A stretch of 51,134 nt of DNA from a virus. Taxonomy: Duplodnaviria; Heunggongvirae; Uroviricota; Caudoviricetes. This document shows positions 2,004 to 35,924 of the stretch, piece after piece. The notes beneath the pieces are model-generated. The model was not told where the DNA came from. It made no database searches and was given only the letters and a program-made list of their open reading frames with translations. The stretch lies in the IMG/VR virus record IMGVR_UViG_2724679172_000007; one strand, given 5' to 3'. Both the position numbers and the translations under genes were made by a program. Position 1 is the stretch's first letter. Every line of letters begins with the position of its first letter.

Positions 2004-3434
2004 TTACGGGTAAGAAATGCTGAACGTTGAAGATTTTACGTTAAGATAAATGAAGTCATTAAAGTAAACAGCATCTTTCATATTTTGTATTGTTATGTCG
2101 TAAGACAGAAACATATCCAGAGACTCTATTACTCGCCAAATATCCTTAACTTTTACCTGTGCATAACATTGCTGGGAATCATCATCACTCTGTAGTAATA
2201 AACTGAATGATGACGAATCACGGCCAAAATTATCTTCCAACGCTGCTTTAATAGCATTTTGAGCATCGTCTATCAGAACATTTTTACGTGCAATACCTAT
2301 AAAATTTATAGTAAATGGCTGTTCATTTGTATCTACATACTCGAACCGCTTGTTCAACTCATTTGGAACATTCTCTAGAGCTTTCAGTATTTCTGATTTT
2401 AGCTGAGACTGGCTTACACCCGGCTTATGTCCGCAAAAGAAAATTTTGTTGATGTTTCGAACGTCAAACCCAGTTATTTTCTCTTGTAACGCTTCGCCCC
2501 AAACGTTCAACCATGAAGTTCCATGAACAACATTCTGAATGAATTGGCGATAATCACCGCCCCATACCACTTGTTCATCGTATGCAACATAATACTGAGC
2601 ACGATTTCGAGTTTCTTCTGTAGTTTCCATACCACTACCACCGGTAATGATCGAATCAGTTTTAAACTCTAGTGACTCCACATATTGAGCGATATTTCCA
2701 GCCGGTTCTAACTTTTGTCCTTCAGCCAAAGTATAGTCGCCAAGGCTAGCCATAACATCGATTCGAACCTGACAGCCTGCTGGAGGCATCATACCCATAG
2801 AACCATCACCAAACTTGACTCCAAGTTGTTCTGTAGGTTTATATGCCAATGAATAGTGCTTACTCTTGTCTCTGGACATTCTAAATAATGGGTTATATGT
2901 CCATTTTTCTTCTACTCCATCTGTAATAACATAAACATCCAGGCTAGAGACTTCTTTTGTTAACTCTCTGGAAAGCAACAATGTCAGAAATAAAGTTTCC
3001 TTCTCAATATCAAACGTAATGCTAACAGCTTCATGCTGTTTAGTTTCTACGCCAGAAACAGTTCCTCCAGCAGGAATTACAACACTGTTAATAATTGCCA
3101 AAGGTGTTTGGTCATTGGCAAGCAATTCAGCCCCGGCTGGTAACGTAATATCCCGATCAGTTTTATTGGTTATAGACGTTGTTCCGTATGAAGCACTAAC
3201 AAATCGCCCTACGTAGCTACGGTCTTCAGCAACCGCTAAAATACTTGAGCGGCGCGTTGCCGTTGAAATAAGTCCCTCAGTGAGGCCGCGACTTGCAAAT
3301 GTACGGGCAATATAAATAAGCTGCGATCCGAATATAGCGTGCATCTGCACAAACTGACTATTTACAAATCGTGACCACCATGTATTTTCATTTAACTTGG
3401 CGTTAAATTTGTCCAGTAATTCTGTAATCGTCAC
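2004..3434 (-). CDS. Baseplate J-like protein
   Basis: 476-aa ORF whose start overlaps the stop of the upstream W-like gene (translational coupling); size and position match the baseplate J/gp6 family. Confidence 0.5.
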   Translation of the reverse strand: MTITELLDKFNAKLNENTWWSRFVNSQFVQMHAIFGSQLIYIARTFASRGLTEGLISTATRRSSILAVAEDRSYVGRFVSASYGTTSITNKTDRDITLPAGAELLANDQTPLAIINSVVIPAGGTVSGVETKQHEAVSITFDIEKETLFLTLLLSRELTKEVSSLDVYVITDGVEEKWTYNPLFRMSRDKSKHYSLAYKPTEQLGVKFGDGSMGMMPPAGCQVRIDVMASLGDYTLAEGQKLEPAGNIAQYVESLEFKTDSIITGGSGMETTEETRNRAQYYVAYDEQVVWGGDYRQFIQNVVHGTSWLNVWGEALQEKITGFDVRNINKIFFCGHKPGVSQSQLKSEILKALENVPNELNKRFEYVDTNEQPFTINFIGIARKNVLIDDAQNAIKAALEDNFGRDSSSFSLLLQSDDDSQQCYAQVKVKDIWRVIESLDMFLSYDITIQNMKDAVYFNDFIYLNVKSSTFSISYP

Positions 3435-3810: not shown

Positions 3811-6800
3811 TTAATCCTCAAGCAGAGCATCCAGCGACTGGTCATTAATAGTTGTGCTCGCACGTGGTCGCGGCTGCGGCTGCGATGTTTTGACAACATT
3901 ATCCGGATCGCCTTTTGTATTGTTCTTGTTCACATTCAGCAGATCGTTCAGGATAGAGCAGATGTTATCCAGCGCCTTCAACATAGCAGGATCGTTATTT
4001 ATAGTGTCAGTAGTTAATGGTTGTCTTATTCCGCTTCGTGCGAGATCGGTTACAGTAGGGAGTTGTGGCGGCATAGCAAGAAAAGGTTCTTGCACAGCTG
4101 AAGCAGAGCCAAATATGGCGTTATTGGCACCAGTTGCTATTCCCCTAATGCTATTAGCGGTTTGTTGAATCCCCCCATTCAGCCAGTCTCCAACATTTCT
4201 TGTTAATGGGCTAATAGCTCGCGCAATCGCACTATTCTGCCCAGTAGACTGCATTACAAGATCGTTCAATATCCCTGTACTATCAATCCCCCCAACAAGT
4301 CGTGAAAGGTTATCGCCAACGGCAGGAATTACTGCGGTTCCTGTCTGTTTAAGCCCTGACACCGTGGAATCAAATAGCGAACCAAAGAAGCTCTTATCCT
4401 CACCTGTAACCACCTTGTAGCCGTTGTCATAAATCTGCACATCACTTGGTGCCGTGATAGTTCGTTTTCCAGAGGTAACTACTGGCGCAGCTCCCGCCAT
4501 AGCCTGGTTGATTGCCAGAGCCTGCTCCTGCTGTGGAGTTTTCGGTGCTGGCGCTGCAGACGAAAAGCCCGCCATAGCCTGGCTGATTGCCAGAGCCTGC
4601 TCCTGCTGTGGGGTTTTCGGTGCTGGCGCTGCAGACGAAAAGCCCGCCATAGCCTGGCTGATTGCCAGAGCCTGCTCCTGCTGTGGGGTTTTCGGTGCTG
4701 GCGCTGCAGACGAAAAGCCCGCCATAGCCTGGCTGATTGCCAGAGCCTGCTCCTGCTGTGGGGTTTTCGGTGCTGGCGCTGCAGACGAAAAGCCCGCCAT
4801 AGCCTGGCTGATTGCCAGAGCCTGCTCCTGCTGTGGGGTTTTCGGTGCTGGCGCTGCAGACGAAAAGCCCGCCATAGCCTGGCTGATTGCCAGAGCCTGC
4901 TCCTGCTGTGGGGTTTTCGGTGCTGGCGCTGCAGACGAAAAGCCCGCCATAGCCTGGCTGATTGCCAGAGCCTGCTCCTGCTGTGGGGTTTTCGGTGCTG
5001 GCGCTGCAGACGAAAAGCCCGCCATAGCCTGGCTGATTGCCAGAGCCTGCTCCTGCTGTGGGGTTTTCGGTGCTGGCGCTGCAGACGAAAAGCCCGCCAT
5101 AGCCTGGCTGATTGCCAGAGCCTGCTCCTGCTGTGGGGTTTTCGGTGCTGGCGCTGCAGACGAAAAGCCCGCCATAGCCTGGCTGATTGCCAGAGCCTGC
5201 TCCTGCTGTGGGGTTTTCGGTGCTGGCGCTGCAGACGAAAAGCCCGCCATAGCCTGGCTGATTGCCAGAGCCTGCTCCTGCTGTGGAGTTTTCGGAGTAG
5301 AAGGGGATACTTGATCTCCCGGAAGTAGATCAATGATTTCTGTATCGTGATTAACAGTGCGTTTTTGTTGTATGGCTGTTGCGATATCAGCCACTTGAGA
5401 AGCTTTTTTAAATCCAAAAGATTTACCGGTTAAGCCGGATATCTTTTCAGTAAGAGCCTGATCCATTCCTTTCGCTTTTTCGGAAAGCGAAGATATAGAA
5501 CCAAACGAAGTAGCCAACGCAAAATCCTTTACCAGGTCCAGACTTGTTCCAGCAAGGCTGGTAGCCGCGCCGCCAAATAAATTACTTGCACCACTGATTC
5601 CGCTTTCATTTATTGCGATTAACCGCTCAAGCAAACTCGATGGAGAGCCGGTATTAACATCAGCGTTCTCTGGATTAATCGGTTGTGGTTGGTTACCTGT
5701 TTTTTGTGGCTTTTTGACTGCCTGGGCATGTTGTGCAACCTCAATTGGCTGTTGTGTTGCTGTCGGAACGGCATTCAAAACTGGTTGAGCTGGAGATTTT
5801 CCATTAGCATATTTTACCTTGCGACCAACACTATATTGCGAATCGCGGGCAATTAGCTGACCACCATTTTCTTTCTGAATTTTATTAATCCGCGCCAATG
5901 TTTCATCAGAGAATTGCCCCTCCCATCGACCAGTGTTTGTGTTAAATGCTCCAAGTGCGTTCTTAATGAACTCATTATTAACTGCCGGATTTCCGCCTTC
6001 TTTCGTCGCAATTGCACGAACTAATTGCGTCATAACCTCTGGTTTGCTGACATCTATTTTTTCATTAGGCGATACACCAAGATATTTACTGACGTTATCA
6101 ATATATTGGTTAGTATTGTTCTCATTTGGCGGTGCCCATTTTGAAATGATGCTGGATACCGTCTGTAACTTCTGATATCCCGCTGCGGCACTGGTGCCGT
6201 TGTAATAGCTGGAAACCTGGTTTGCCAGTGCCCTGATCCCTTCTTCAGGTGTGTTAAATCGCGCAAAACGTTGTTCACCTTTTGCATTTGGCGATTCCAG
6301 CGTCGCCCCTTCCTGGTTGGCAAAAACAAGATTGCCGAGATTATTATTTCGGTAATTGCGGTTTTTAGCGTTGCTGCCGCCAATATTCAGATCCGCTGCA
6401 ATGGTGTTGTTGGCAGGTGCACTAAATTCAGTTGGAGAAGTATACCCGTGCTCACCAACTCCATCCTCGCCATTACGCCCACCTTGTAATTGTTCACCTA
6501 GAGAATGAATCGCATCGACAGTTTTTTTGGTGCCGTCTTCAACAGCTTTTTTTACTTGTTTCGTGTTTTCGTCAGTGGATAAAAATGTATCCTTAAGGCT
6601 ACCAAAAACAGATTTGGTGATATCTACCGCGCCGTTAACACCACGAGCAATATCTCCGGTATCAAAATTCTGAAGTTTTTCACCTGCTCTTTCAAATCCT
6701 AGCGCAGAAATTCCTTTCCCTATCAAGTTCGTTGCGCCCGACACCAAGCCCCCCATATCGAGCACATTAGCTGTTGCGTAAGCCGTTTTTTGCTGTTCGG

Positions 6801-8391
6801 ATACAGCATCATCGTCACTTAATCCAAAGGCTGCCTTTTGCGCATCTGTATCAGTGTAACCATCTATAGCGTCATATCCCGCCATAGCCAGCGATCCGAT
6901 GATAGGGATAGCTCTTGCAGCTGTAGAAGCAGCTGATTTAACACCTATTTTTGCAGCACTTTTGAGGGCTACGGATTCGGTTTTTTTCTTTGCAACAGTT
7001 TCACCTGTTTTAACTGTGGCCTCTTCGGCAACAACACCTGCTGGCTTAACTGCCTTTGCTGTGTTTTTTGTTTCTTTAGCAATACCCTTAGATGCGTCGC
7101 TTGTGGTGCTGATGTCTTTGGCTTTACTAACCTTTGTTTTAACAGTCTTTGCAGCTCCAGCACCAGCTCCAGCAGCAGCGGTTCCGGCAGCGGCTTTTTC
7201 ACCAACAGAAAGGGCTTTTTTCCCCAGATTGCGACCTTTCCTTTTCGGTTTGTTCCGTTTATTTTTACCAGCCTGATCGCCAATATTGATTTTATTTCTT
7301 CTGCTTGCTCGATTTCTCCAGAGATCACTTAAGCCGAACTTATTCCCAGAAGATACTGATTTGCGTAGCTTAACTACTTCGTCGGAGACATTTTCCAGAC
7401 CATCAATTATTTTGTTGTCATTGGTCTGAAGAATTTTTGTTTGCTCTTCTACTGCTTGTGCTGATTTTGTCTCAACAGCATTATTAAATGCTGTTGCAGA
7501 GGTTGCTTTTTGAGTATTAACCACCGCCGGATAAGTGATAGCTGGAGATGTCGCTTTCGAAGGTGAAGCCTCACCTTTCCCCTTTTCTACCCATTCTTTA
7601 AGAGATTCTGCTTTACCTGTGATCTCTTTAGTAATGTCGTACATGCCGCGAGCAGCCATCCACAACGGACCACCAGCGCCAACACCTGCGGCATCTGTTA
7701 AAGACTCTTCACTGGAAGACTGATTGCCATCTACCCCTATAATGGAGCCTAATTTCCGGAGGAAGCCTTCTTGTAGTTTGGCGTCGGCCTTATGTGCTTT
7801 CTGCCATTCTTTTTTTCTGGCTATATCTTCGTTGTTTTTCTGGGATACAAAGCGTCCGTTACTATCCCGAAGCGGTCCTTTTTGGCTTTGGGGGGATTGT
7901 GGTTCAAGAGGAGCAGAATTAGCGGCTACTGGCACAGAACCTTTCAACTTTTGGGCTGACTGGCGTGATGACGCAAAATGAACGCGCTCTGATGTGTTGG
8001 TTGCAACAATGAGACGTTCTTCTCCGTTGTTGATCTGCGTCCTCCCTTTTTTCATCGGAAGGCGTTTTATATATGGGTTAGCTTGGGTGTTCTTGGCATC
8101 ATCAGAGACATAGGGTTCGCTTGCTATGAGTCTACGGGATAGTCTTTGACTTACTTTACCTTGATTTTCACCAAGTTGAGTTATAGACCCTCTACCAGAG
8201 AGAATGGCGTCTTTGATCTCAGCAAGAGCGTTAAGTTCGTTTGTGCTCGCCCCCTGAATAGCGTCAATTATTGCGATACGGTCTTTATTCTCTTTCAAAA
8301 TAACCTCTCTTTTGCCAGCGGCGATCAACGTTTCCCGGCTTGAGCTTTGTATTTTTCTTCCAGGGCTTTTGACATATGGAGTGCTCGCCAT
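3811..8391 (-). CDS. Tail tape-measure / structural injection protein (P1 Sit-like), with internal 25-aa tandem repeats
   Basis: 1526-aa ORF, Ala/Gly/Ser/Lys-rich and low-complexity; contains about 11 consecutive copies of KTPQQEQALAISQAMAGFSSAAPAP; followed by baseplate genes as in P1 (sit-pmgA-bplA-16-R-S). Confidence 0.6.
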   Translation of the reverse strand: MASTPYVKSPGRKIQSSSRETLIAAGKREVILKENKDRIAIIDAIQGASTNELNALAEIKDAILSGRGSITQLGENQGKVSQRLSRRLIASEPYVSDDAKNTQANPYIKRLPMKKGRTQINNGEERLIVATNTSERVHFASSRQSAQKLKGSVPVAANSAPLEPQSPQSQKGPLRDSNGRFVSQKNNEDIARKKEWQKAHKADAKLQEGFLRKLGSIIGVDGNQSSSEESLTDAAGVGAGGPLWMAARGMYDITKEITGKAESLKEWVEKGKGEASPSKATSPAITYPAVVNTQKATSATAFNNAVETKSAQAVEEQTKILQTNDNKIIDGLENVSDEVVKLRKSVSSGNKFGLSDLWRNRASRRNKINIGDQAGKNKRNKPKRKGRNLGKKALSVGEKAAAGTAAAGAGAGAAKTVKTKVSKAKDISTTSDASKGIAKETKNTAKAVKPAGVVAEEATVKTGETVAKKKTESVALKSAAKIGVKSAASTAARAIPIIGSLAMAGYDAIDGYTDTDAQKAAFGLSDDDAVSEQQKTAYATANVLDMGGLVSGATNLIGKGISALGFERAGEKLQNFDTGDIARGVNGAVDITKSVFGSLKDTFLSTDENTKQVKKAVEDGTKKTVDAIHSLGEQLQGGRNGEDGVGEHGYTSPTEFSAPANNTIAADLNIGGSNAKNRNYRNNNLGNLVFANQEGATLESPNAKGEQRFARFNTPEEGIRALANQVSSYYNGTSAAAGYQKLQTVSSIISKWAPPNENNTNQYIDNVSKYLGVSPNEKIDVSKPEVMTQLVRAIATKEGGNPAVNNEFIKNALGAFNTNTGRWEGQFSDETLARINKIQKENGGQLIARDSQYSVGRKVKYANGKSPAQPVLNAVPTATQQPIEVAQHAQAVKKPQKTGNQPQPINPENADVNTGSPSSLLERLIAINESGISGASNLFGGAATSLAGTSLDLVKDFALATSFGSISSLSEKAKGMDQALTEKISGLTGKSFGFKKASQVADIATAIQQKRTVNHDTEIIDLLPGDQVSPSTPKTPQQEQALAISQAMAGFSSAAPAPKTPQQEQALAISQAMAGFSSAAPAPKTPQQEQALAISQAMAGFSSAAPAPKTPQQEQALAISQAMAGFSSAAPAPKTPQQEQALAISQAMAGFSSAAPAPKTPQQEQALAISQAMAGFSSAAPAPKTPQQEQALAISQAMAGFSSAAPAPKTPQQEQALAISQAMAGFSSAAPAPKTPQQEQALAISQAMAGFSSAAPAPKTPQQEQALAISQAMAGFSSAAPAPKTPQQEQALAINQAMAGAAPVVTSGKRTITAPSDVQIYDNGYKVVTGEDKSFFGSLFDSTVSGLKQTGTAVIPAVGDNLSRLVGGIDSTGILNDLVMQSTGQNSAIARAISPLTRNVGDWLNGGIQQTANSIRGIATGANNAIFGSASAVQEPFLAMPPQLPTVTDLARSGIRQPLTTDTINNDPAMLKALDNICSILNDLLNVNKNNTKGDPDNVVKTSQPQPRPRASTTINDQSLDALLED
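4491..5295. repeat. Tandem direct repeat, 75-bp unit, about 10.7 copies, in-frame within the tape-measure-like gene
   Basis: Unit agcctggctgattgccagagcctgctcctgctgtggggttttcggtgctggcgctgcagacgaaaagcccgccat starts at 4501, 4576, 4651 ... 5251 (period 75); internal copies are identical, the first and last differ by 1-2 nt. Confidence 0.95.
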
Positions 8392-29584: not shown

Positions 29585-30352
29585 TCACCCCATAGATATC
29601 GAGGTTTCGGTAATAATACGTTTTGCGTCCAACTCCCATGCTGTGATCACGTCTGTAATCACACTTATCGGCGCTTGTGTGGCATAAATACGCTCTTCTC
29701 CAATTGGTGCTGAAACATCCGTAAAGCCGACTTCTTTGGCATCCTGTATCGAGCAAATCAGCGGGACCGGGACACGAACAAGGTGAGTGGTTGCTTCAAA
29801 TTGTGTACCTGTCATCAGGCGAAGCCGTGCGCCCAGCGAATTACACATCAGACTCATGGTCGCTTTATCAGTTGCCATTAACGTAACGTCATACGTCAGA
29901 ATGGCCTGGGTGTATTCCAGTTCTGCTAAAGGCATTCCGGTATCCGGTTCGCAAAAACTGGCTACTTTTTTGCGGTCAATCTGCTGATCATCGTTGATAT
30001 AATTGATATCCATAGTGCGTGAGATATTGACCAGGGGGAGAGCATCCCGGTTAATGTTCTGGTTTTCAGGTTTTCTCCCTTGCCCGGCATTTGCGCGACG
30101 AACTGCTTTAAGAAACTCGATCGCATTGTCGAAACGGGCCACATAGACACGCTCTGCTGGTGGACGATTCAGGAATGACGCAAAGCGTTTTTCTTCCGGC
30201 GCGGGGGCCACCAGTAAGATATCAGAAAAGATATTGCTGATTAGCGTAGCAAACGCGTTATCCACGTTTTCAAAGCCCGTGGTCTGGAATTTTCCTGTGC
30301 GTGAGGTTTGCCATTCACCTGTTCGCGCCAGGAGGGTTTTATTTGAAGTCAT
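29585..30352 (-). CDS. Phage structural protein (hypothetical)
   Basis: 255-aa ORF with SD GGAGTGA; in an operon with the baseplate hub/spike genes. Confidence 0.3.
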   Translation of the reverse strand: MTSNKTLLARTGEWQTSRTGKFQTTGFENVDNAFATLISNIFSDILLVAPAPEEKRFASFLNRPPAERVYVARFDNAIEFLKAVRRANAGQGRKPENQNINRDALPLVNISRTMDINYINDDQQIDRKKVASFCEPDTGMPLAELEYTQAILTYDVTLMATDKATMSLMCNSLGARLRLMTGTQFEATTHLVRVPVPLICSIQDAKEVGFTDVSAPIGEERIYATQAPISVITDVITAWELDAKRIITETSISMG

Positions 30353-31140
30353 TCGATCACTCCGTTTTGAGTCGTATCAAAATTCCTGGCTGGTATGCAG
30401 TAGTAAAGCGAACCAACATGCTGTGTGCCGTAGCTAAAAATACGGTGCACGTACCACCAGCGGCGGGCTACGCCGTTTACCATCTCTTCATTCCATTCAA
30501 GAATTGAGCCGACGGGGACGTTATTTGCTGCAATACGCAGAATCAGAACATCATCGGTTAAGCCATCCTGCTCACCGTCTGCGTCAATCGCATGGAAAGA
30601 GTCACGCCCGTCCGGGTTATCCAGCACATAAACGATTTCAGGTTCCTGGTAAGTCAGTTCGCGTTGGTTGTTATCCAGTTCAGTGAATGACTCTTCTCCT
30701 GTTTCGTCGCTGACTACCCCATATGTGCCAACATCTGGTCGATATAAGAGAGCCTGAAACGCGTCTGGGCTGGATTCAATAATCAGCATCCAGTCTGTGC
30801 GGATTTGGTCGTTAAAGGCTTTATGCCCGTTATAGCGTGCTTTTAGCTGTGGAGTTGGTTCTCTGCCAGCCAGGGAAGGTGGAAGTATGGCTATATCTGA
30901 TTCGCCAGCATCTGGAGTAAGGCCACCGTTGCTATCAGCAAAATTATCATGGCTATCAGCTTTGGCGGCGGGTTGCTCTTCCAGAATGCTGAATGAATCC
31001 GAACTGGTATTGCCATGTTCCGGCGCGCCTCCTGCATTCGCTTCAATCGGCGCTGGCGTTTCTCTCTGCGTGCTGTCATGTTCTGACTCCTTACTTGCCA
31101 GGTTTGCATCGTCAGAAAACCATTCGTCAAAACGGCCCAT
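30349..31140 (-). CDS. Hypothetical protein (acidic, low-complexity N-terminal half)
   Basis: Start placed at the ATG at 31140 with a GAGG SD 8 nt upstream; the track's longer start lacks an SD. Confidence 0.35.
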   Translation of the reverse strand: MGRFDEWFSDDANLASKESEHDSTQRETPAPIEANAGGAPEHGNTSSDSFSILEEQPAAKADSHDNFADSNGGLTPDAGESDIAILPPSLAGREPTPQLKARYNGHKAFNDQIRTDWMLIIESSPDAFQALLYRPDVGTYGVVSDETGEESFTELDNNQRELTYQEPEIVYVLDNPDGRDSFHAIDADGEQDGLTDDVLILRIAANNVPVGSILEWNEEMVNGVARRWWYVHRIFSYGTQHVGSLYYCIPARNFDTTQNGVIE

Positions 31141-31210
31141 AAGCATCCTCAAAGGTCGATTTATCAGGTATCGAGGGTGCATTGTCTGGAGATTGTGATT
31201 TCAATTCATA

Positions 31211-31255
31211 TCCCAGCATGGGACTAAAGTGCTTTACATTGTCCCATATTGGGAC
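31211..31255. promoter_or_regulatory. Putative HigA operator: two copies of the inverted repeat TCCCA-N3-TGGGAC
   Basis: tcccagcatgggac (31211-31224) and gtcccatattgggac (31241-31255) just upstream of higB. Confidence 0.4.
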
Positions 31256-31285
31256 TACTATACTTTCAGAGAGAAGGAATCTGTG

Positions 31286-31588
31286 ATGAAAATAATTTCG
31301 GTAAAAACACTAAGGGATTTCTGGGCGAAGAATCCCGATGCAGAACAGCCATTAAAGGCATGGGTTGATGAAGCAACAAAGGCTGACTGGAAAAATCCGG
31401 CTGAGATCAAAGAACAGTACCGGACAGCCAGCATCCTTAAAAACAGGCGCGTGGTGTTCAATATTAAGGGAAATGATTACAGGTTAATTGTCGCAATTGC
31501 TTATCAGCGAGGATGGATGTTCGTTAAGTTTATTGGAACACATAAGGAATACGATGCCATTGAAGCGGATACAATAGAACTGGAGTAA
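31286..31588 (+). CDS. higB: Type II toxin HigB (RelE/ParE superfamily mRNA interferase)
   Basis: 100 aa; pattern KxLxDFW...KAW...WKNPAEIK...VFNIKGNDYRLI...FIGTHKEYD matches HigB toxins; toxin-first order with a downstream HTH antitoxin. Confidence 0.65.
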   Translation: MKIISVKTLRDFWAKNPDAEQPLKAWVDEATKADWKNPAEIKEQYRTASILKNRRVVFNIKGNDYRLIVAIAYQRGWMFVKFIGTHKEYDAIEADTIELE

Positions 31589-31591
31589 ATC

Positions 31592-31951
31592 ATGAACATT
31601 AAACCTATCCGTACAGAACAAGATTATGAGGCCGCACTGCGTGCGGTCGAACCGATGTTCGATAATGAACCGGAAATGAACACACCGGAAGGCGATTTCT
31701 TTGAGGTTATGTGTCTTCTCATTGAGGAGTACGAGAAAAAACATTACCCAATTGAGCCACCATCACCTATTGAGGCCATTAAATTCCGTATGGAACAGCA
31801 AGGACTGACCGTGAAGGATCTGGAACCGGCAATTGGTAAGTCAAACCGTGTTTACGAAGTGCTTAATGGGACACGAAATTTGACGTTACCTATGATTCGT
31901 CGTTTACATGCCCAGTTTGGTATTCCACTGGAAAGTCTGGTTGGTGTTTAA
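31592..31951 (+). CDS. higA: Antitoxin HigA (XRE-family HTH)
   Basis: 119 aa, 4 nt after higB; C-terminal HTH (LTVKDLEPAIGKSNRVYEVLNGTRNLTLPMIRRLHAQFGIP). Confidence 0.65.
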   Translation: MNIKPIRTEQDYEAALRAVEPMFDNEPEMNTPEGDFFEVMCLLIEEYEKKHYPIEPPSPIEAIKFRMEQQGLTVKDLEPAIGKSNRVYEVLNGTRNLTLPMIRRLHAQFGIPLESLVGV

Positions 31952-31956
31952 GTTTT

Positions 31957-31977
31957 GCGGTCTGGATGACCGCTTTT
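31957..31977 (+). terminator. Intrinsic terminator after higA
   Basis: gcggtc-tggat-gaccgc followed by TTTT. Confidence 0.45.
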
Positions 31978-32011
31978 ACATAAAATCAATGTTTAAATAT
32001 TTGGTAATTAT

Positions 32012-32746
32012 ATGAGCGCTGATTCATCAATAGAAAAGGAAAACTCCTCTACCCAAAATCTGTTAGAAGATGCTGTAAAAGATAAGTTGTTTAATAAGGT
32101 TTTTGCCTACATTTTTATTTCGTTTTTAATTTCTAATTGGCGAGACATATTTATATTACTGAAGTCAAAAGATGATGTTATGTATACATTATCTATAGTG
32201 TTTGTCGGGGAAAAGATCCCATTATTGGGGAATCTTTTTTTACCATCGTTCGTAGCTCATTTTGTTTTGCCTTTTATTTATGGTGTTGTGGCGTCAATAT
32301 TAGCGCCACTGTTAACCCTGTTAATTTCTTTGGTGACAAGCACATTATATGCTAAATTAAGAAAAATAGATGAAATTGCAAATAAAAAAGAACAAATAAG
32401 GACAATTAACAGTGATATTAAGAAAGCCATTAAGAAGCAGAGAGACGTTAAAAAGTATATTGAACAAGAAGAAGAAGAACTTGAATCATTAGAAAAACGG
32501 CTTAAAGAAATTAGGGAACAGATTGAATGTGTGGATAGCGATATCATTCATATTATTAAATTATATAGAGAGAAAGGTGAGAGCTTAAATTCGGTGGATG
32601 ATTTTTATGAATTTTTTACCGCCGTGAAAAACTCATCTTTTCGTTCGGGTGATACAAATGACAGGGAAACACTTGAGGAGCTTCTCTCAAAGCTTTCTGA
32701 TTCACTTGAAAAAATTAAATGCGATGCTAATAAAAAGGTGGGATAA
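32012..32746 (+). CDS. Low-GC membrane-anchored coiled-coil protein (unknown function; candidate exclusion/abortive-infection effector)
   Basis: 244 aa; conspicuously AT-rich codon usage compared with flanks; hydrophobic segments (FAYIFISFLISNW; LFLPSFVAHFVLPFIYGVVASILAPLLTLLISLVTSTLY) followed by a charged heptad-like region (KKEQIRTINSDIKKAIKKQRDVKKYIEQEEEELESLEKRLKEIREQIE). Confidence 0.5.
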   Translation: MSADSSIEKENSSTQNLLEDAVKDKLFNKVFAYIFISFLISNWRDIFILLKSKDDVMYTLSIVFVGEKIPLLGNLFLPSFVAHFVLPFIYGVVASILAPLLTLLISLVTSTLYAKLRKIDEIANKKEQIRTINSDIKKAIKKQRDVKKYIEQEEEELESLEKRLKEIREQIECVDSDIIHIIKLYREKGESLNSVDDFYEFFTAVKNSSFRSGDTNDRETLEELLSKLSDSLEKIKCDANKKVG

Positions 32747-32767
32747 ACCCACCTTTGTTAATTTTTT
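32734..32767. terminator. Bidirectional intrinsic terminator between convergent genes
   Basis: aaaggtggg-ataaa-cccaccttt hairpin followed by a T-run; overlaps the stop of the 32012..32746 gene. Confidence 0.5.
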
Positions 32768-33948
32768 ATGTACTCCATGAACATTTTTTCAGCTTGTGCT
32801 GGTGGTGTTCCAGCCATGACAAGCGCATCAATGAACGCCTGCTTCTTCAGTGCGAACTGATCGGCCAGGCGTTGCTGAAGCTCCTTGTTTTTCTGTTTCT
32901 CACGTTGCAACGCCGCTTCTTTTGCTGCCGCCCGTTTTTTCTGTGCGTCTGACAACTTTCTGACCTTGGTCAGTTGGTCACGTAGCTTGTCAATCTTGCC
33001 GTTGTCCTTTGCCAGTTTTGTGCTTAAAGCGGCCTGGCGCTTCTGATAGAGCCTCCATTCTCGCTTGGCAGCGTCAACGTTCGTTTTACTGCTACGATTG
33101 CGATTAAACTCCTTCTCGTCTTCTTTTGAGAAGTGTTTGGTTGTACGGCGGCGATCGTCACCAAATGCAATTTGCGTTGCAGCCTTTTGTAGCGCACGAG
33201 CAATACTCATTTGCCAACTGGCGGACTGTAACCGCGTCATTGAGTGGATCACGTGTTTACAGGCGACGCCTTGCAGCTTCGGGTTGCGAACTTTTGGATA
33301 GGCGTATTCTTTTGGCGGTGCCAGGGCAAAGTTACCCGCAGTGGCGATGTAACGATACCAGTATTGATGACGACCACAGTCACAATCGAAAGACACTCGC
33401 CCGGCGCACAGTGATTTAGTGATTTTGAGAGCTGATTTATCGTCTTCTGCGATATCATCAACCATCTGATCCCATTCTTCAAAGCGTATCCGGACGATAT
33501 GGTGCTGGTGGACGGATATATCCGATGCTTCTACGCGGATATTAATCACATTGTGGCGAAGAGATACGGGTGTAGCTCTTTTGATACCAGATCCGTCATC
33601 CACGGCGTTATTTGCACGCTTAATATCGATTGCCTGGCTGGATGCCACCAGCTGGGCGTATGTGATGCCAGCCGTCTTGCTGTCATATTTTTCGCGCGTT
33701 TTACTCCGGAGCTTTTCGAAACCTTTCAGGTCGTCTCGCGTGAAGAACGTGCCGCCTTTTTTCTTCCCTAACTTGAGAATATCTTCGGCGGATTTGTTCC
33801 TCAGTCTACCTGGCGTCAGCGTCCGGTGAGCTTGCCGGCGCTTACGGGTTTGTTCTTTCCTGATAAGGTCGAATAAACGCGTGAAGTCCTTAGAGGACAG
33901 GCCGTCAGTGATATAGCGCCCGTCCTGGTTTTTCAGGAAATCAGGCAT
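32758..33948 (-). CDS. SWIM-type zinc-finger-containing protein with basic coiled-coil C-terminus (function unknown)
   Basis: 396 aa; CxC-x(n)-CxH signature (FDCDCGRHQYW ... VACKHVIH); C-terminal Lys/Arg/Gln/Ala-rich region; good SD (GGAGATAG). Confidence 0.45.
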   Translation of the reverse strand: MPDFLKNQDGRYITDGLSSKDFTRLFDLIRKEQTRKRRQAHRTLTPGRLRNKSAEDILKLGKKKGGTFFTRDDLKGFEKLRSKTREKYDSKTAGITYAQLVASSQAIDIKRANNAVDDGSGIKRATPVSLRHNVINIRVEASDISVHQHHIVRIRFEEWDQMVDDIAEDDKSALKITKSLCAGRVSFDCDCGRHQYWYRYIATAGNFALAPPKEYAYPKVRNPKLQGVACKHVIHSMTRLQSASWQMSIARALQKAATQIAFGDDRRRTTKHFSKEDEKEFNRNRSSKTNVDAAKREWRLYQKRQAALSTKLAKDNGKIDKLRDQLTKVRKLSDAQKKRAAAKEAALQREKQKNKELQQRLADQFALKKQAFIDALVMAGTPPAQAEKMFMEYIKN

Positions 33949-34270
33949 TTTCTATCTCCGGTTCCGCGCTCGCGTAATCACGGATCTTATTCCTCAGCCA
34001 TGCCACATCAGGAAGAGTTAACGTGGTCCCGGCGGGCATTTCTTCCATTTCTGACTCATGGCCCACCAGCACCCGGAATACCCAGCGCAAATCTGCATTG
34101 CCATACGCCCTGTAGGCTGCAAGGTCTGAACGATATACTTCATCAATCTTTATCGTGTACTGGAAATTATCAGAGTGATACTCCGATACCCGCTTAATCA
34201 TTTCCTGGTGAAACAGCGCACGAAAAATATCGTCTTCAATGTACCTATCGTCGAGTCTGCTATAGCCCAT
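33941..34270 (-). CDS. Hypothetical protein (first gene of the two-gene operon with the SWIM protein)
   Basis: 109-aa ORF with SD GAGGGG; stop overlaps the start of the downstream gene. Confidence 0.45.
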   Translation of the reverse strand: MGYSRLDDRYIEDDIFRALFHQEMIKRVSEYHSDNFQYTIKIDEVYRSDLAAYRAYGNADLRWVFRVLVGHESEMEEMPAGTTLTLPDVAWLRNKIRDYASAEPEIENA

Positions 34271-34331
34271 AACAAAGCCCCTCAGTCATAACCTGGGGAA
34301 AACTGTATGCAGGGTGTGAAATGCGAGAAAG

Positions 34332-34357
34332 CAGCGTCACCAGGCCTGGTGACGCTG
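34332..34357. terminator. Perfect 26-bp palindrome (terminator/operator) downstream of the higBA-2 operon
   Basis: cagcgtcaccagg|cctggtgacgctg. Confidence 0.4.
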
Positions 34358-34362
34358 TGAAA

Positions 34363-34656
34363 TTATGCGTGGAAAAATAATGGACGGATGTTTGGGCGAG
34401 TGGTTTGCGAAGCAACCCAAAGCTCATACTGGGATTGCATACCGGTCCACATTTCGGCACTGGTTCCAAGAGCGGACTCCAGACGAAGTGCCATATCAGC
34501 AGATATACCTGCTTTTTCATTCAGAATTCGGGAAAGCGCCGTGCGAGTAATGCCTAATGCCGCAGCGGCGTCTGTGACTGACATGTCTCCCAAATATTCA
34601 CGAAGAACCGCGCCTGGATGCGCGGGATTATGCATACGACTCATAGTGTTCCTCAA
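34363..34656 (-). CDS. higA: Antitoxin HigA-2 family (HTH, antidote protein)
   Basis: 97 aa; MHNPAHPG...[37 protein letters not shown] matches the HigA antidote family pattern. Confidence 0.6.
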
Positions 34657-34931
34657 TGATAATCCTGATAGTCAACTAGAATTGCGTCTTCTCCTTCAAA
34701 TCGGAAGGTAAGTCGCCAGTTACCGTTTACCGATATTGCCCAGTGACCTTTAAGGTCCGCCCCCTTTAGAGGGTGCAATTCCCATCCAGGCGCAGACATA
34801 TCGTCCGGGCGTTTAGCTGTATTAAGCGCAGTCAATTGAATGCGTAGCTTAACCGCATGTTTGGCCTGAATGCCTGCGGTTGAACCTGTCTTGAAAAAGC
34901 GTTCAAGCCCTTTATGGCGAAATGACTTAAT
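34653..34931 (-). CDS. higB: Toxin HigB-2 (plasmid maintenance system killer protein family)
   Basis: [16 protein letters not shown]...[40 protein letters not shown] matches the killer-protein family; probable TTG start at 34931; stop overlaps the antitoxin start. Confidence 0.55.
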
Positions 34932-35136
34932 CAAAATAATTCCATTCGTGCGTGCAACCTGTGTATATACGCTACACGCAGAAAGAGTAAAATGCAAGCA
35001 CTATCCGTATAGACAGAGTTTTTTCGCCACCCTGGAATTTATTGACTGTCAACAAGTGACTTTCATTAATCTTAAGGCGTGGACCAGCTCGATAGTGAGC
35101 TGGGTGTTATTTACCGATCGAATGGATTCGAAAAGA

Positions 35137-35270
35137 TGAATATTTTTAATAAGCTGATTGATTTATTGAATAAATTCATTAGTGCTTCTTTAACTCAGCA
35201 GGTATCCACGTCAGTGTTTTTGTTACTCTTCTACCTGGTATTGAGGGAGTTAACAAAGCTACTAATGTGA
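35137..35270 (+). CDS. Small hydrophobic protein (44 aa), possible membrane peptide
   Basis: AT-rich small ORF MNIFNKLIDLLNKFISASLTQQVSTSVFLLLFYLVLRELTKLLM after a GC hairpin (ccagctc-gatagt-gagctgg); weak SD. Confidence 0.25.
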
Positions 35271-35924
35271 TCAAAGTATCACGGTATCTTCATCAACTTC
35301 TTTCCCAGCCAGTGACTTTGGCTGGGAGGTGCCTGCTTTAACTTTTTCATGCCCAATAATGGACAGGATCGAAGCGAGTATGCCTGTTTTTTGCTCTTTC
35401 TCGACTGTGCCGGTCATCTGCTCTACGTAATCTGCACTGGCAACGTTGTGGTATACGGTCGCGTAGCAACACAGGATCATCAGAATATGCTCCGGCCTGA
35501 TATCCTGCCAGTTCACCCTGTAGACTTCTTCTCCGTTACCGTTGTATTCGGTATCAACGATAGAGTCGGGGATTTCGAAAGCACCTTTGTTATTTTGCGG
35601 CAGGGATAATAGCTTCTGGAGTTTTAACTCTCTGTATCTTTCCATCCCGACGATGATTGCTGCTCTGCCATCGGCATGACGGGTCTTGAGAGTCACCTGG
35701 CTTGCTCCGGTGCCAGCGGAGATCGTTGGCGTAATTTCGTCTACCAGTACCTTAAATTTGCTTTTCCGCAGGGCTGCTATAGCTGGAGGAATTTTTTGCT
35801 TTTGCTCCAATGCTGACGCGGGAAGGGGTTTTACTTCGTTAATAATGAGAGCACCGTCTTTCAGTATTGCAGTGAGCATTTGAGGCTTGCTGGTGGTCAG
35901 GCTGAATATTGCGATCTTTTCCAT
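35271..35924 (-). CDS. Hypothetical protein
   Basis: 217 aa; start set at the ATG at 35922-35924, preceded by a strong SD (GGAGGAAGG); the longer upstream start in the track lacks an SD. Confidence 0.45.
   Translation of the reverse strand: MEKIAIFSLTTSKPQMLTAILKDGALIINEVKPLPASALEQKQKIPPAIAALRKSKFKVLVDEITPTISAGTGASQVTLKTRHADGRAAIIVGMERYRELKLQKLLSLPQNNKGAFEIPDSIVDTEYNGNGEEVYRVNWQDIRPEHILMILCCYATVYHNVASADYVEQMTGTVEKEQKTGILASILSIIGHEKVKAGTSQPKSLAGKEVDEDTVIL

Follow-up and report, generated by a model that had tools for sequence, protein, structure and literature searches.

Small membrane proteins encoded by prophages, namely SieB of phages lambda and P22, SieA of P22 and RexB of lambda, are the described systems that come closest to the gene studied here. 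This gene lies in a stretch of 51,134 nucleotides from a virus of the Caudoviricetes (IMG/VR record IMGVR_UViG_2724679172_000007), which we call the window. We use X as the working name of the open reading frame (ORF) at 32012..32746 and of its product, and L-numbers for the individual contigs and plasmids that were compared. The coordinates and contexts are collected in Table 1.

SieB is an abortive superinfection-exclusion protein, which is the kind of mechanism that we propose for X. Like X, it is a small membrane protein with N-terminal transmembrane (TM) helices and a cytoplasmic C-terminal part, and its genes stand alone against the direction of their neighbours; the P22 record annotates a sieB promoter. 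However, SieB has no long coiled coil. Further, P22 makes the protein Esc from an internal start and is thereby protected from its own SieB, while X contains no internal methionine beyond residue 57. SieA of P22 is an inner-membrane protein that blocks the entry of DNA from related phages. Its gene is, like X, an accessory gene (a "moron") on the opposite strand next to tail or ejection genes, and a sieA promoter is annotated, but SieA has only 163 amino acids (aa) and no coiled coil. RexB of lambda and the TM effectors of abortive infection (Abi) share with X a membrane module that could collapse the membrane potential when triggered. RexB needs the separate sensor RexA, whereas in the single gene X a putative sensor or oligomerisation part would belong to one chain with the membrane module, and no conserved partner gene is found alongside X across its contexts.

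In sequence no relationship to these proteins was detected. The comparison of X by hhalign gave probabilities of 0.1% for SieB of lambda, 0.8% for SieB of P22, 1.3% for SieA (over the hydrophobic stretch only) and 0.4% for RexB; these are tests of a profile against a single sequence, with limited sensitivity. The SieB family PF14163 matches none of 30 members of the X family, while SieB of lambda itself is recovered at 1e-29 in the same library. The likeness of X to SieA, SieB and RexB is one of design and genomic placement only.

For the locus as a whole the closest counterparts are the hotspots of P2 and P4 (Rousset et al. 2022). Both are fixed intergenic sites in a conserved temperate backbone where the cargo is swapped; at the X locus the states are the toxin-antitoxin (TA) pair HigBA with X, HigBA alone, X alone and a YjaZ-like gene. 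But P2 and P4 hotspots hold unrelated systems in turn, whereas the X locus keeps one family as many diverged alleles. This pattern resembles a polymorphism of the immunity or specificity type more than a turnover of cassettes. The X locus is a newly delineated hotspot of phage-plasmids, and X makes a good candidate phage-exclusion protein.

The window is a D6-like phage-plasmid of the P1 type. The region around X is 100% identical to the 94-kb E. coli plasmid NZ_OY754373.1, and 89% identical to Escherichia phage D6 at the DNA level over the 47% of the query that was aligned. In the annotation of D6 the neighbours are homologues of P1 genes 5, 6, 24 and 7 on one side and of 25, 26 and mat on the other. 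We compared the window with D6, three exact-match contigs, an Enterobacter plasmid and 22 IMG/VR contigs, and in all these D6-like elements X lies between the homologues of gene 7 and gene 25, on the opposite strand. A scan of 5426 complete E. coli genomes found the locus in 126 of them, and 125 of its 127 places are on plasmids.

The gap between gene 7 and gene 25 accepts various cargo, as a general hotspot does. In the E. coli plasmid NZ_CP135715 (L049) it contains HigBA without X, at 1438-2103; this layout is listed for three complete E. coli plasmids, one of which was inspected. In the E. coli plasmid NZ_CP142794 (L048) all cargo is replaced by a gene for a YjaZ-like "stationary phase growth adaptation protein", at 2444-2983. 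Since X is absent or replaced in D6-like plasmids that keep the flanks, it is dispensable for phage growth. In addition, X is opposite in strand to the surrounding tail genes and has terminators on both sides. This supports the view that it is an accessory gene of lysogenic conversion, that is, a moron of a temperate element.

A preliminary description of this DNA had presented X as an AT-rich island, and took this as a sign of recent horizontal acquisition. The ORF is present as described, and so is the island: the GC content of X is 0.320, compared with a mean of 0.474 for the window (standard deviation, SD, 0.038 among 735-bp windows), and the lowest-GC 735-bp window of the 51 kb (0.313, about 4 SD under the mean) begins at 31976. 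The recent acquisition, on the other hand, does not agree with the comparisons. All X alleles share a low GC (0.29-0.35), as do the distant relatives (0.32-0.35). Further, a homologue that is about 20% identical to X is found at the same site, with no TA genes, in the distant phage-plasmid lineage of L030/L031, where the synonymous sites of the flanking genes are saturated relative to the window. The shared locus, even in this lineage, and the uniformly low GC indicate that X is not a recent private acquisition, and the synonymous divergence between its alleles is also saturated. X is a long-standing resident of an old polymorphic locus.

The alleles of X are far more diverged than their surroundings. 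Between D6-like elements the products of genes 7 and 25, as well as HigB and HigA, are 98-100% identical, while X is 36-60% identical. The synonymous divergence (dS) is 0.01-0.13 in the flanks, 0.22 for higA compared with D6, and 1.2-2.2, that is saturated, for X. Within one type of backbone there are at least ten allele classes below 70% identity. One of the alleles, in L004, is a natural chimera with a breakpoint inside X near 32150: the first approximately 45 codons are 96-98% identical to the window, and then the identity collapses.

The divergence is not evenly spread over the protein. About 40 residues of the membrane module are invariant among the D6-like alleles, and the module as a whole is conserved, while the coil and the C-terminal part vary. 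For most pairs of alleles the ratio of nonsynonymous to synonymous divergence (dN/dS) is 0.1-0.35, corresponding to purifying selection on both halves of X; in the closest pair (the window and L008, 83% identical) it is 0.92 in the C-terminal half and 0.10 in the membrane part. As read from these alignments, the alleles are ancient and have been kept and reshuffled by recombination.

In the clusters P0001, P0009 and P0010, many entries of X alleles are "partial" proteins cut off by the end of a contig of about 55 or 90 kb. The breaks of draft assemblies thus often fall within X, and possible causes are its AT-rich sequence or co-resident alleles.

The architecture of X consists of a membrane module, a long coiled coil and a small C-terminal helical region. 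By hydropathy, residues 30-50 and 83-113 are hydrophobic, and residues 59-80 less strongly so. The order in the membrane module is a KDKLFNK flank, TM1 (30-50), a KSKDD loop and TM2 (83-113). The centre of TM1 is polar, N42-W43-(R/Q)-(D/E), and TM2 contains the invariant prolines P87 and P99. Residues 114-187 show a 3.5-residue periodicity in one register (power 119 versus 12.8 +/- 12.5; 0 of 2000 shuffles reach it), and in the AlphaFold model residues 79-187 form a single unbroken helix with pLDDT >90 in its middle. Towards the C-terminal region Y185 is near-invariant, and a D-F..F..AV motif comes after it. Hydropathy, the heptad test and AlphaFold are thus in agreement with the hydrophobic segments and long coiled coil of the preliminary description.

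Lysines and arginines flank the helices on the N-terminal side (KDKLFNK) and directly after helix 2 (AKLRK), and the loop side of helix 2 is uncharged; the flank-charge counts over the whole family are weakly asymmetric. Since the positive flanks are on the N- and C-terminal sides, the coil is probably cytoplasmic, and the sequence would correspond to an N-in/C-in topology with two TM helices and a short periplasmic loop. Further, a regular coil of about 75 residues implies an oligomer.

The closest named relative of X is orf73 of D6 (ASR76396), which is 41% identical over the full length (E 3e-63) and found in the syntenic position. It is a true orthologue, that is another allele of X: its locus, between the homologues of gene 7 and gene 25, its length and its architecture are the same, and there is no difference in kind. 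The profile phrog_8191, of unknown function, matches residues 1-242 of X over 242 profile positions (E 1.9e-75). However, both X and orf73 are annotated as hypothetical or unknown, so membership in phrog_8191 tells nothing about function.

In agreement with the preliminary description, no other named family was found. Pfam, NCBIfam and PADLOC searches of X and 30 family members returned coiled-coil noise only (SMC/Rad50, LmuB, JetC, ZapB etc.). A sequence profile search of the PDB gave nothing, with no significant sequence or fold match to solved structures, and one viral scan also found nothing. A word-indexed search of 5.8 billion proteins gave 14 clusters, every one called hypothetical, and all database names of X are likewise "hypothetical protein". 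Of two scans of species-representative genomes, one gave nothing and the other a single locus. The gene is not mentioned in the literature that was checked on D6-like plasmids, phage-plasmids and P2/P4 hotspots.

The family is nevertheless sizeable. A HMMER profile search of 1.84 billion representatives identified 69 proteins at E <1e-3, most of them of 200-270 aa and with the same layout as X. The ten longer relatives (up to 473 aa) extend the coil only, and no fused extra or enzymatic domain was found in them. In an alignment of 30 relatives, the most distant of which are 15-25% identical to X, N42, P87 and P99 are invariant and S37, S52, G91 and Y185 nearly so. By these sequence criteria X belongs to an undescribed family of inner-membrane proteins, for which there is no model beyond the unnamed PHROG.

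All contexts in which relatives of X were found are temperate elements or islands, and several of the relatives are located beside defence-type genes (Table 1). In a phage collection, tblastn found only two records, both of D6, which is temperate. The pair of proteins near the Lelliottia relative contains the AAA_15/21 and DUF4435 domains that define PARIS (Rousset et al. 2022, PMC9122126).

The NTPase gene beside the relative in a Buttiauxella metagenome-assembled genome (L007, 5950-8907, minus strand) encodes a protein of 985 aa that is HSDR_N-like at its N-terminus and contains a P-loop domain of the STAND/KAP type. The gene and the distant X homologue run towards each other in an island inserted beside pca genes, and the PADLOC matches of the protein are only weak (PDC-M54B and mad8).

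The preliminary description had also assigned to X a promoter of its own, after the higA terminator, and an intrinsic terminator over its stop codon. Both hairpins were found (z -3.0 to -3.7). The one after higA has the form GCGGTC-loop-GACCGC followed by TTTTAC (-12.3 kcal/mol, z -3.0 compared with shuffles). The one at the stop codon has z -3.4 and -3.7 on its two strands; with a T-run on each of them, it probably terminates X in one direction and the convergent transcript of genes 26 and 25 in the other. The promoter, in contrast, was not recovered. The distance from the higA hairpin to the ATG of X is only 38 nt, and within it no sigma-70-like match of at least 9/12 is found; the region contains five promoter-like sites, the same as expected by chance. 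In an upstream alignment of ten alleles the hairpin and a GGTAG about 8 nt 5' of the ATG are shared, but no -35/-10 pair.

The hairpin at 32734-32756 is symmetric, and the insertion of the plus-strand cassette seems to split the tail genes 26-25 and 7-24-6-5 into two transcription units. An Rfam search of 30800-35300 gave a single sub-threshold chance match.

What, then, could X do? Our first candidate, held tentatively and with a little less than an even chance, is that X is an inner-membrane exclusion or abortive-infection protein expressed in the lysogen. The preliminary description had suggested such an effector. The suggestion is a reasonable hypothesis, since relatives stand beside defence-type genes and X itself is a stand-alone membrane moron, but it finds no match among known exclusion or defence proteins. 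According to Rousset et al. 2022 (PMC9122126), the TM proteins of anti-phage systems known so far are believed to act as suicide effectors.

The topology, the oligomerisation, the expression in the lysogen and the exclusion or Abi function that we infer could be combined as follows. X would be made in the lysogen and would oligomerise through its coil, bundling four or more helices with the invariant asparagine and the two invariant prolines. Such a bundle of TM helices is the kind of assembly that may gate or perturb a membrane. The membrane module would then block the entry of superinfecting phage DNA, or abort the infection by compromising the membrane, while the variable cytoplasmic coil and the C-terminal part would set what X recognises or pairs with. 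The conserved membrane part, the variable cytoplasmic part, the hotspot, the dispensability and the old polymorphism all fit exclusion or abortive infection; they also fit competition between phage-plasmids.

Several observations speak against this function. No validated exclusion or defence protein is homologous to X (hhalign probabilities of 0.1-1.3% against SieB, SieA and RexB). In PADLOC-DB v2.0 the 16 matches of X, the best of them to LmuB at 2.6e-6, are all on the coil (about residues 100-240), and the D6 orthologue and the Buttiauxella homologue have no PADLOC match at all. An exclusion acting at the periplasmic face would predict a variable loop, but it is the cytoplasmic part that varies. 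The dN/dS values indicate purifying rather than overt positive selection, and the C-terminal divergence may partly reflect low constraint, as a coil tolerates substitutions. Further, truncated or interrupted copies are common (L018, L023, a Klebsiella plasmid with IS903B, many "partial" entries), and X is easily lost. Finally, a search for promoters 5' of X in four contexts found no consistent element, and a gene as AT-rich as X may be silenced by H-NS in E. coli.

Some of the same observations are shared by the view that X has a role outside defence, for instance in the envelope or virulence, in lysogeny or plasmid maintenance or in discrimination between phage-plasmids, or that it is a near-neutral passenger shuffled by recombination at the hotspot. 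This we regard as rather unlikely, but to be taken seriously. The uniformly hypothetical names, the frequent loss, truncation or interruption by insertion sequence (IS) elements, the missing promoter and the low dN/dS all agree with it, and the neighbouring cargo includes plasmid-addiction modules and not classical defence systems. However, the purifying selection on both halves and the TM polar and proline residues that stay invariant at 15-25% identity indicate that a function of X has been maintained. An at least tenfold synonymous excess over the flanks, with many old alleles per backbone, is also hard to reconcile with a neutral passenger, and several distant relatives lie beside defence-type ATPases.

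A coupling of X to the TA pairs has to be considered because of where the gene is found. Genes of the X family are located directly downstream of at least five different type II TA pairs, in the same orientation, at two phage-plasmid loci. The second locus is that after the head-gene cluster in another P1-type group, where the TacA/GNAT, ParE/HTH and HigB103/HTH138 contexts occur. At the locus of the window the pairs also differ. In D6 and many relatives the HigB of the window type is exchanged for RelE/HigB (PF05015) with HigA112, and HigA119 is orphaned, either intact or as 66 aa. In the Enterobacter plasmid and in L028, the pair preceding X is HigB103/HigA139, which is 25-28% identical to the pair of the window.

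X could accordingly be the third component of a TA system, or its expression could depend on read-through that starts at the autoregulated TA promoter once the antitoxin is gone, e.g. upon phage-induced shut-off. Besides the linkage itself, this agrees with the transfer of a HigBA-X block as one piece into a Klebsiella IncFIB plasmid and with the fact that no promoter of X's own was detected. We nevertheless consider it improbable. X is found without any TA genes in L030/L031, L032-L034 and L007; it is intact beside a 66-aa HigA remnant whose cognate HigB is gone in L002 and L009-L017; and HigBA occurs without X in L049. In all configurations checked, the TA pair is followed by a terminator-like hairpin before X begins. 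A specific partnership is also disfavoured by the lack of a biochemical relation between the toxins, which are RNases on the one hand and an acetyltransferase on the other, and as the hotspot also accepts a YjaZ-like gene, the shared position may be the whole explanation. With X alone, TA alone, unrelated toxins and the intervening hairpin, we take the shared use of permissive cargo sites as the default account of the adjacency.

An obligate three-gene HigB-HigA-X system was rejected, as there is no constant co-occurrence with one TA family. A functional tie to the two HigBA modules is therefore not required, and the statement of the preliminary description that X is wedged between them is imprecise: the first pair adjoins X, but the second lies past the tail or baseplate genes 25 and 26.

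The Klebsiella copies were considered as independent evidence of HigBA-X linkage, and rejected as such. In the Klebsiella pneumoniae IncFIB plasmid NZ_CP021697 (L005), a HigB103-HigA139-X segment at 4980-7760 lies amid IS elements. Over its whole course, which begins with the first 13 codons of gene 7 and closes with the end of X, it is a 96% match to L028; X is split by IS903B. The gene 7 codons mark it as a piece captured from a D6-like phage-plasmid, so it is not independent evidence. Matches by tblastn in 55 Klebsiella plasmid records suggest that the captured fragment is widespread.

A more specific form of exclusion is that X would be an allele-specific determinant of self and non-self between related phage-plasmids, as a single-chain membrane exclusion or suicide protein with its specificity in the coil. 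An incoming element with the same X allele could pair and be tolerated, whereas an element with another allele, or without X, would be kept out. The many ancient alleles per backbone, the coil as the variable part and the recombination that swaps the coil behind a conserved membrane module would then be accounted for, although we would give this reading little more than an outside chance. In a weaker variant the upstream TA promoters would gate the expression of X during infection.

A role in morphogenesis or lysis, as a spanin-, holin- or tail-assembly-type protein, is very improbable: the position between tail genes 7 and 25, the matches to Rz-like i-spanin PHROGs (E 0.011-0.13) and the combination of membrane anchor and coiled coil, as in i-spanins, are outweighed by spanin matches that are on the coil only and within the range of many unrelated coiled-coil matches, by the opposite strand, the foreign composition, the absence of X from some functional-looking D6-like plasmids and its recovery from D6 only in the phage collection, by two TM helices with positive flanks that would put the coil in the cytoplasm and not in the periplasm, by the lack of a partner o-spanin or lysis genes nearby, and by structural genes that are 98-100% conserved where X is hypervariable. 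The Rz-type i-spanin in particular was rejected, as X does not show its single TM helix, periplasmic coil, o-spanin and lysis cassette.

Table 1. Features of the window and contexts of X and its relatives in other contigs and plasmids.
Feature	Sequence	Position	Strand	Remarks
ORF X	window	32012..32746	+	ATG start, 244 aa, GC 0.32; phrog_8191 member, orthologue of phage D6 orf73
Conserved membrane module	window	32078..32350	+	residues 23 to about 113-120; from alignments, hydropathy and flank charges
Heptad-periodic coiled coil	window	32351..32572	+	residues 114-187; part varying most between alleles
Small C-terminal helical region	window	32573..32743	+	residues 188-244; low model confidence
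Divergence island	window	31951..32790		sharp boundaries; about 100% nucleotide identity with other D6-like elements outside, about 50% inside
Terminator-like hairpin 3' of higA	window	31957..31973	+	conserved among D6-like alleles
Hairpin with 9-bp stem overlapping the X stop codon	window	32734..32756	both	T-runs on each strand
P1 gene 7 homologue (tail)	window	30349..31182	-	conserved left flank of hotspot
P1 gene 25 homologue (tail)	window	32758..33948	-	conserved right flank of hotspot
HigB toxin (PF09907)	window	31286..31588	+	promoter-like site at 31233-31261
HigA antitoxin (HTH_3, 119 aa)	window	31592..31951	+	directly upstream of X
Second TA pair, HigB-like (PF05015) and HTH_3	window	34363-34997	-	between gene 26 homologue and mat
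HigB PF09907 and HigA119, then X	window	31286-32746	+
HigB103 and HigA139, then X	L006, L028, L042, Klebsiella plasmids
RelE/HigB PF05015 and HigA112, then X	D6
TacA and GNAT toxin, then X relative	L037-L040, L043-L047	about 4780-6714
ParE/RelE and HTH_3, then X relative	L041	5184-6756
HigB103/HTH138, then X relative	L042	1691-3267
X relative, same hotspot	L030/L031			other phage-plasmid lineage
X relatives, second hotspot	L037-L047			after head genes
X relative	L032			beside gpD-like end of P2-like tail operon
X relative	L036 (Lelliottia chromosome)			adjoins Ogr/Delta-family gene; PARIS-like AAA_15/21 and DUF4435 pair at 3 kb
X relative	L034			after AAA_21 ATPase and C5 DNA methyltransferase, beside repressor-like gene
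X relative	L007 (Buttiauxella)			beside low-GC 985-aa STAND/KAP-type NTPase
X relative	L033			prophage; adjoins UmuC-like gene, near Tlde1-domain gene

A few other parts of the window deserve mention. At the site of the second TA pair, between the gene 26 homologue and mat, D6 has two tiny ORFs only, and the site looks like another place for cargo. A second, smaller dip in GC (0.38) is found at 34900-35350, between the second HigB and mat, with an ORF of 63 aa at 35079-35270 (plus strand) that has a hydrophobic C-terminal half and no Pfam match. The only other stretch within the 40 lowest-GC 735-bp windows is at about 1600-2700; the ORFs 1148-1993 and 2004-3434 (both minus strand) overlap it and have no Pfam match.

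Phage-plasmids of the D6/P1 kind are frequent in E. coli, Salmonella, Shigella and Klebsiella, and such elements shuttle genes for resistance and defence between plasmids and phages (PMC10879196). The X family, with about 70 clusters (representatives at 50% identity), is widely distributed and without a functional model, and few signatures of balancing or diversifying maintenance over long times are as clear in its element as that of X. If exclusion or abortive infection is its role, X would be a membrane system of one gene which today's defence finders overlook, and it would point to two new cargo hotspots in P1-type elements. X would also provide a tractable model (244 aa, a natural series of alleles, chimeras) for how a coil sets the specificity of a membrane effector. 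If X has no such role, it would still be a useful marker of recombination in phage-plasmid populations.

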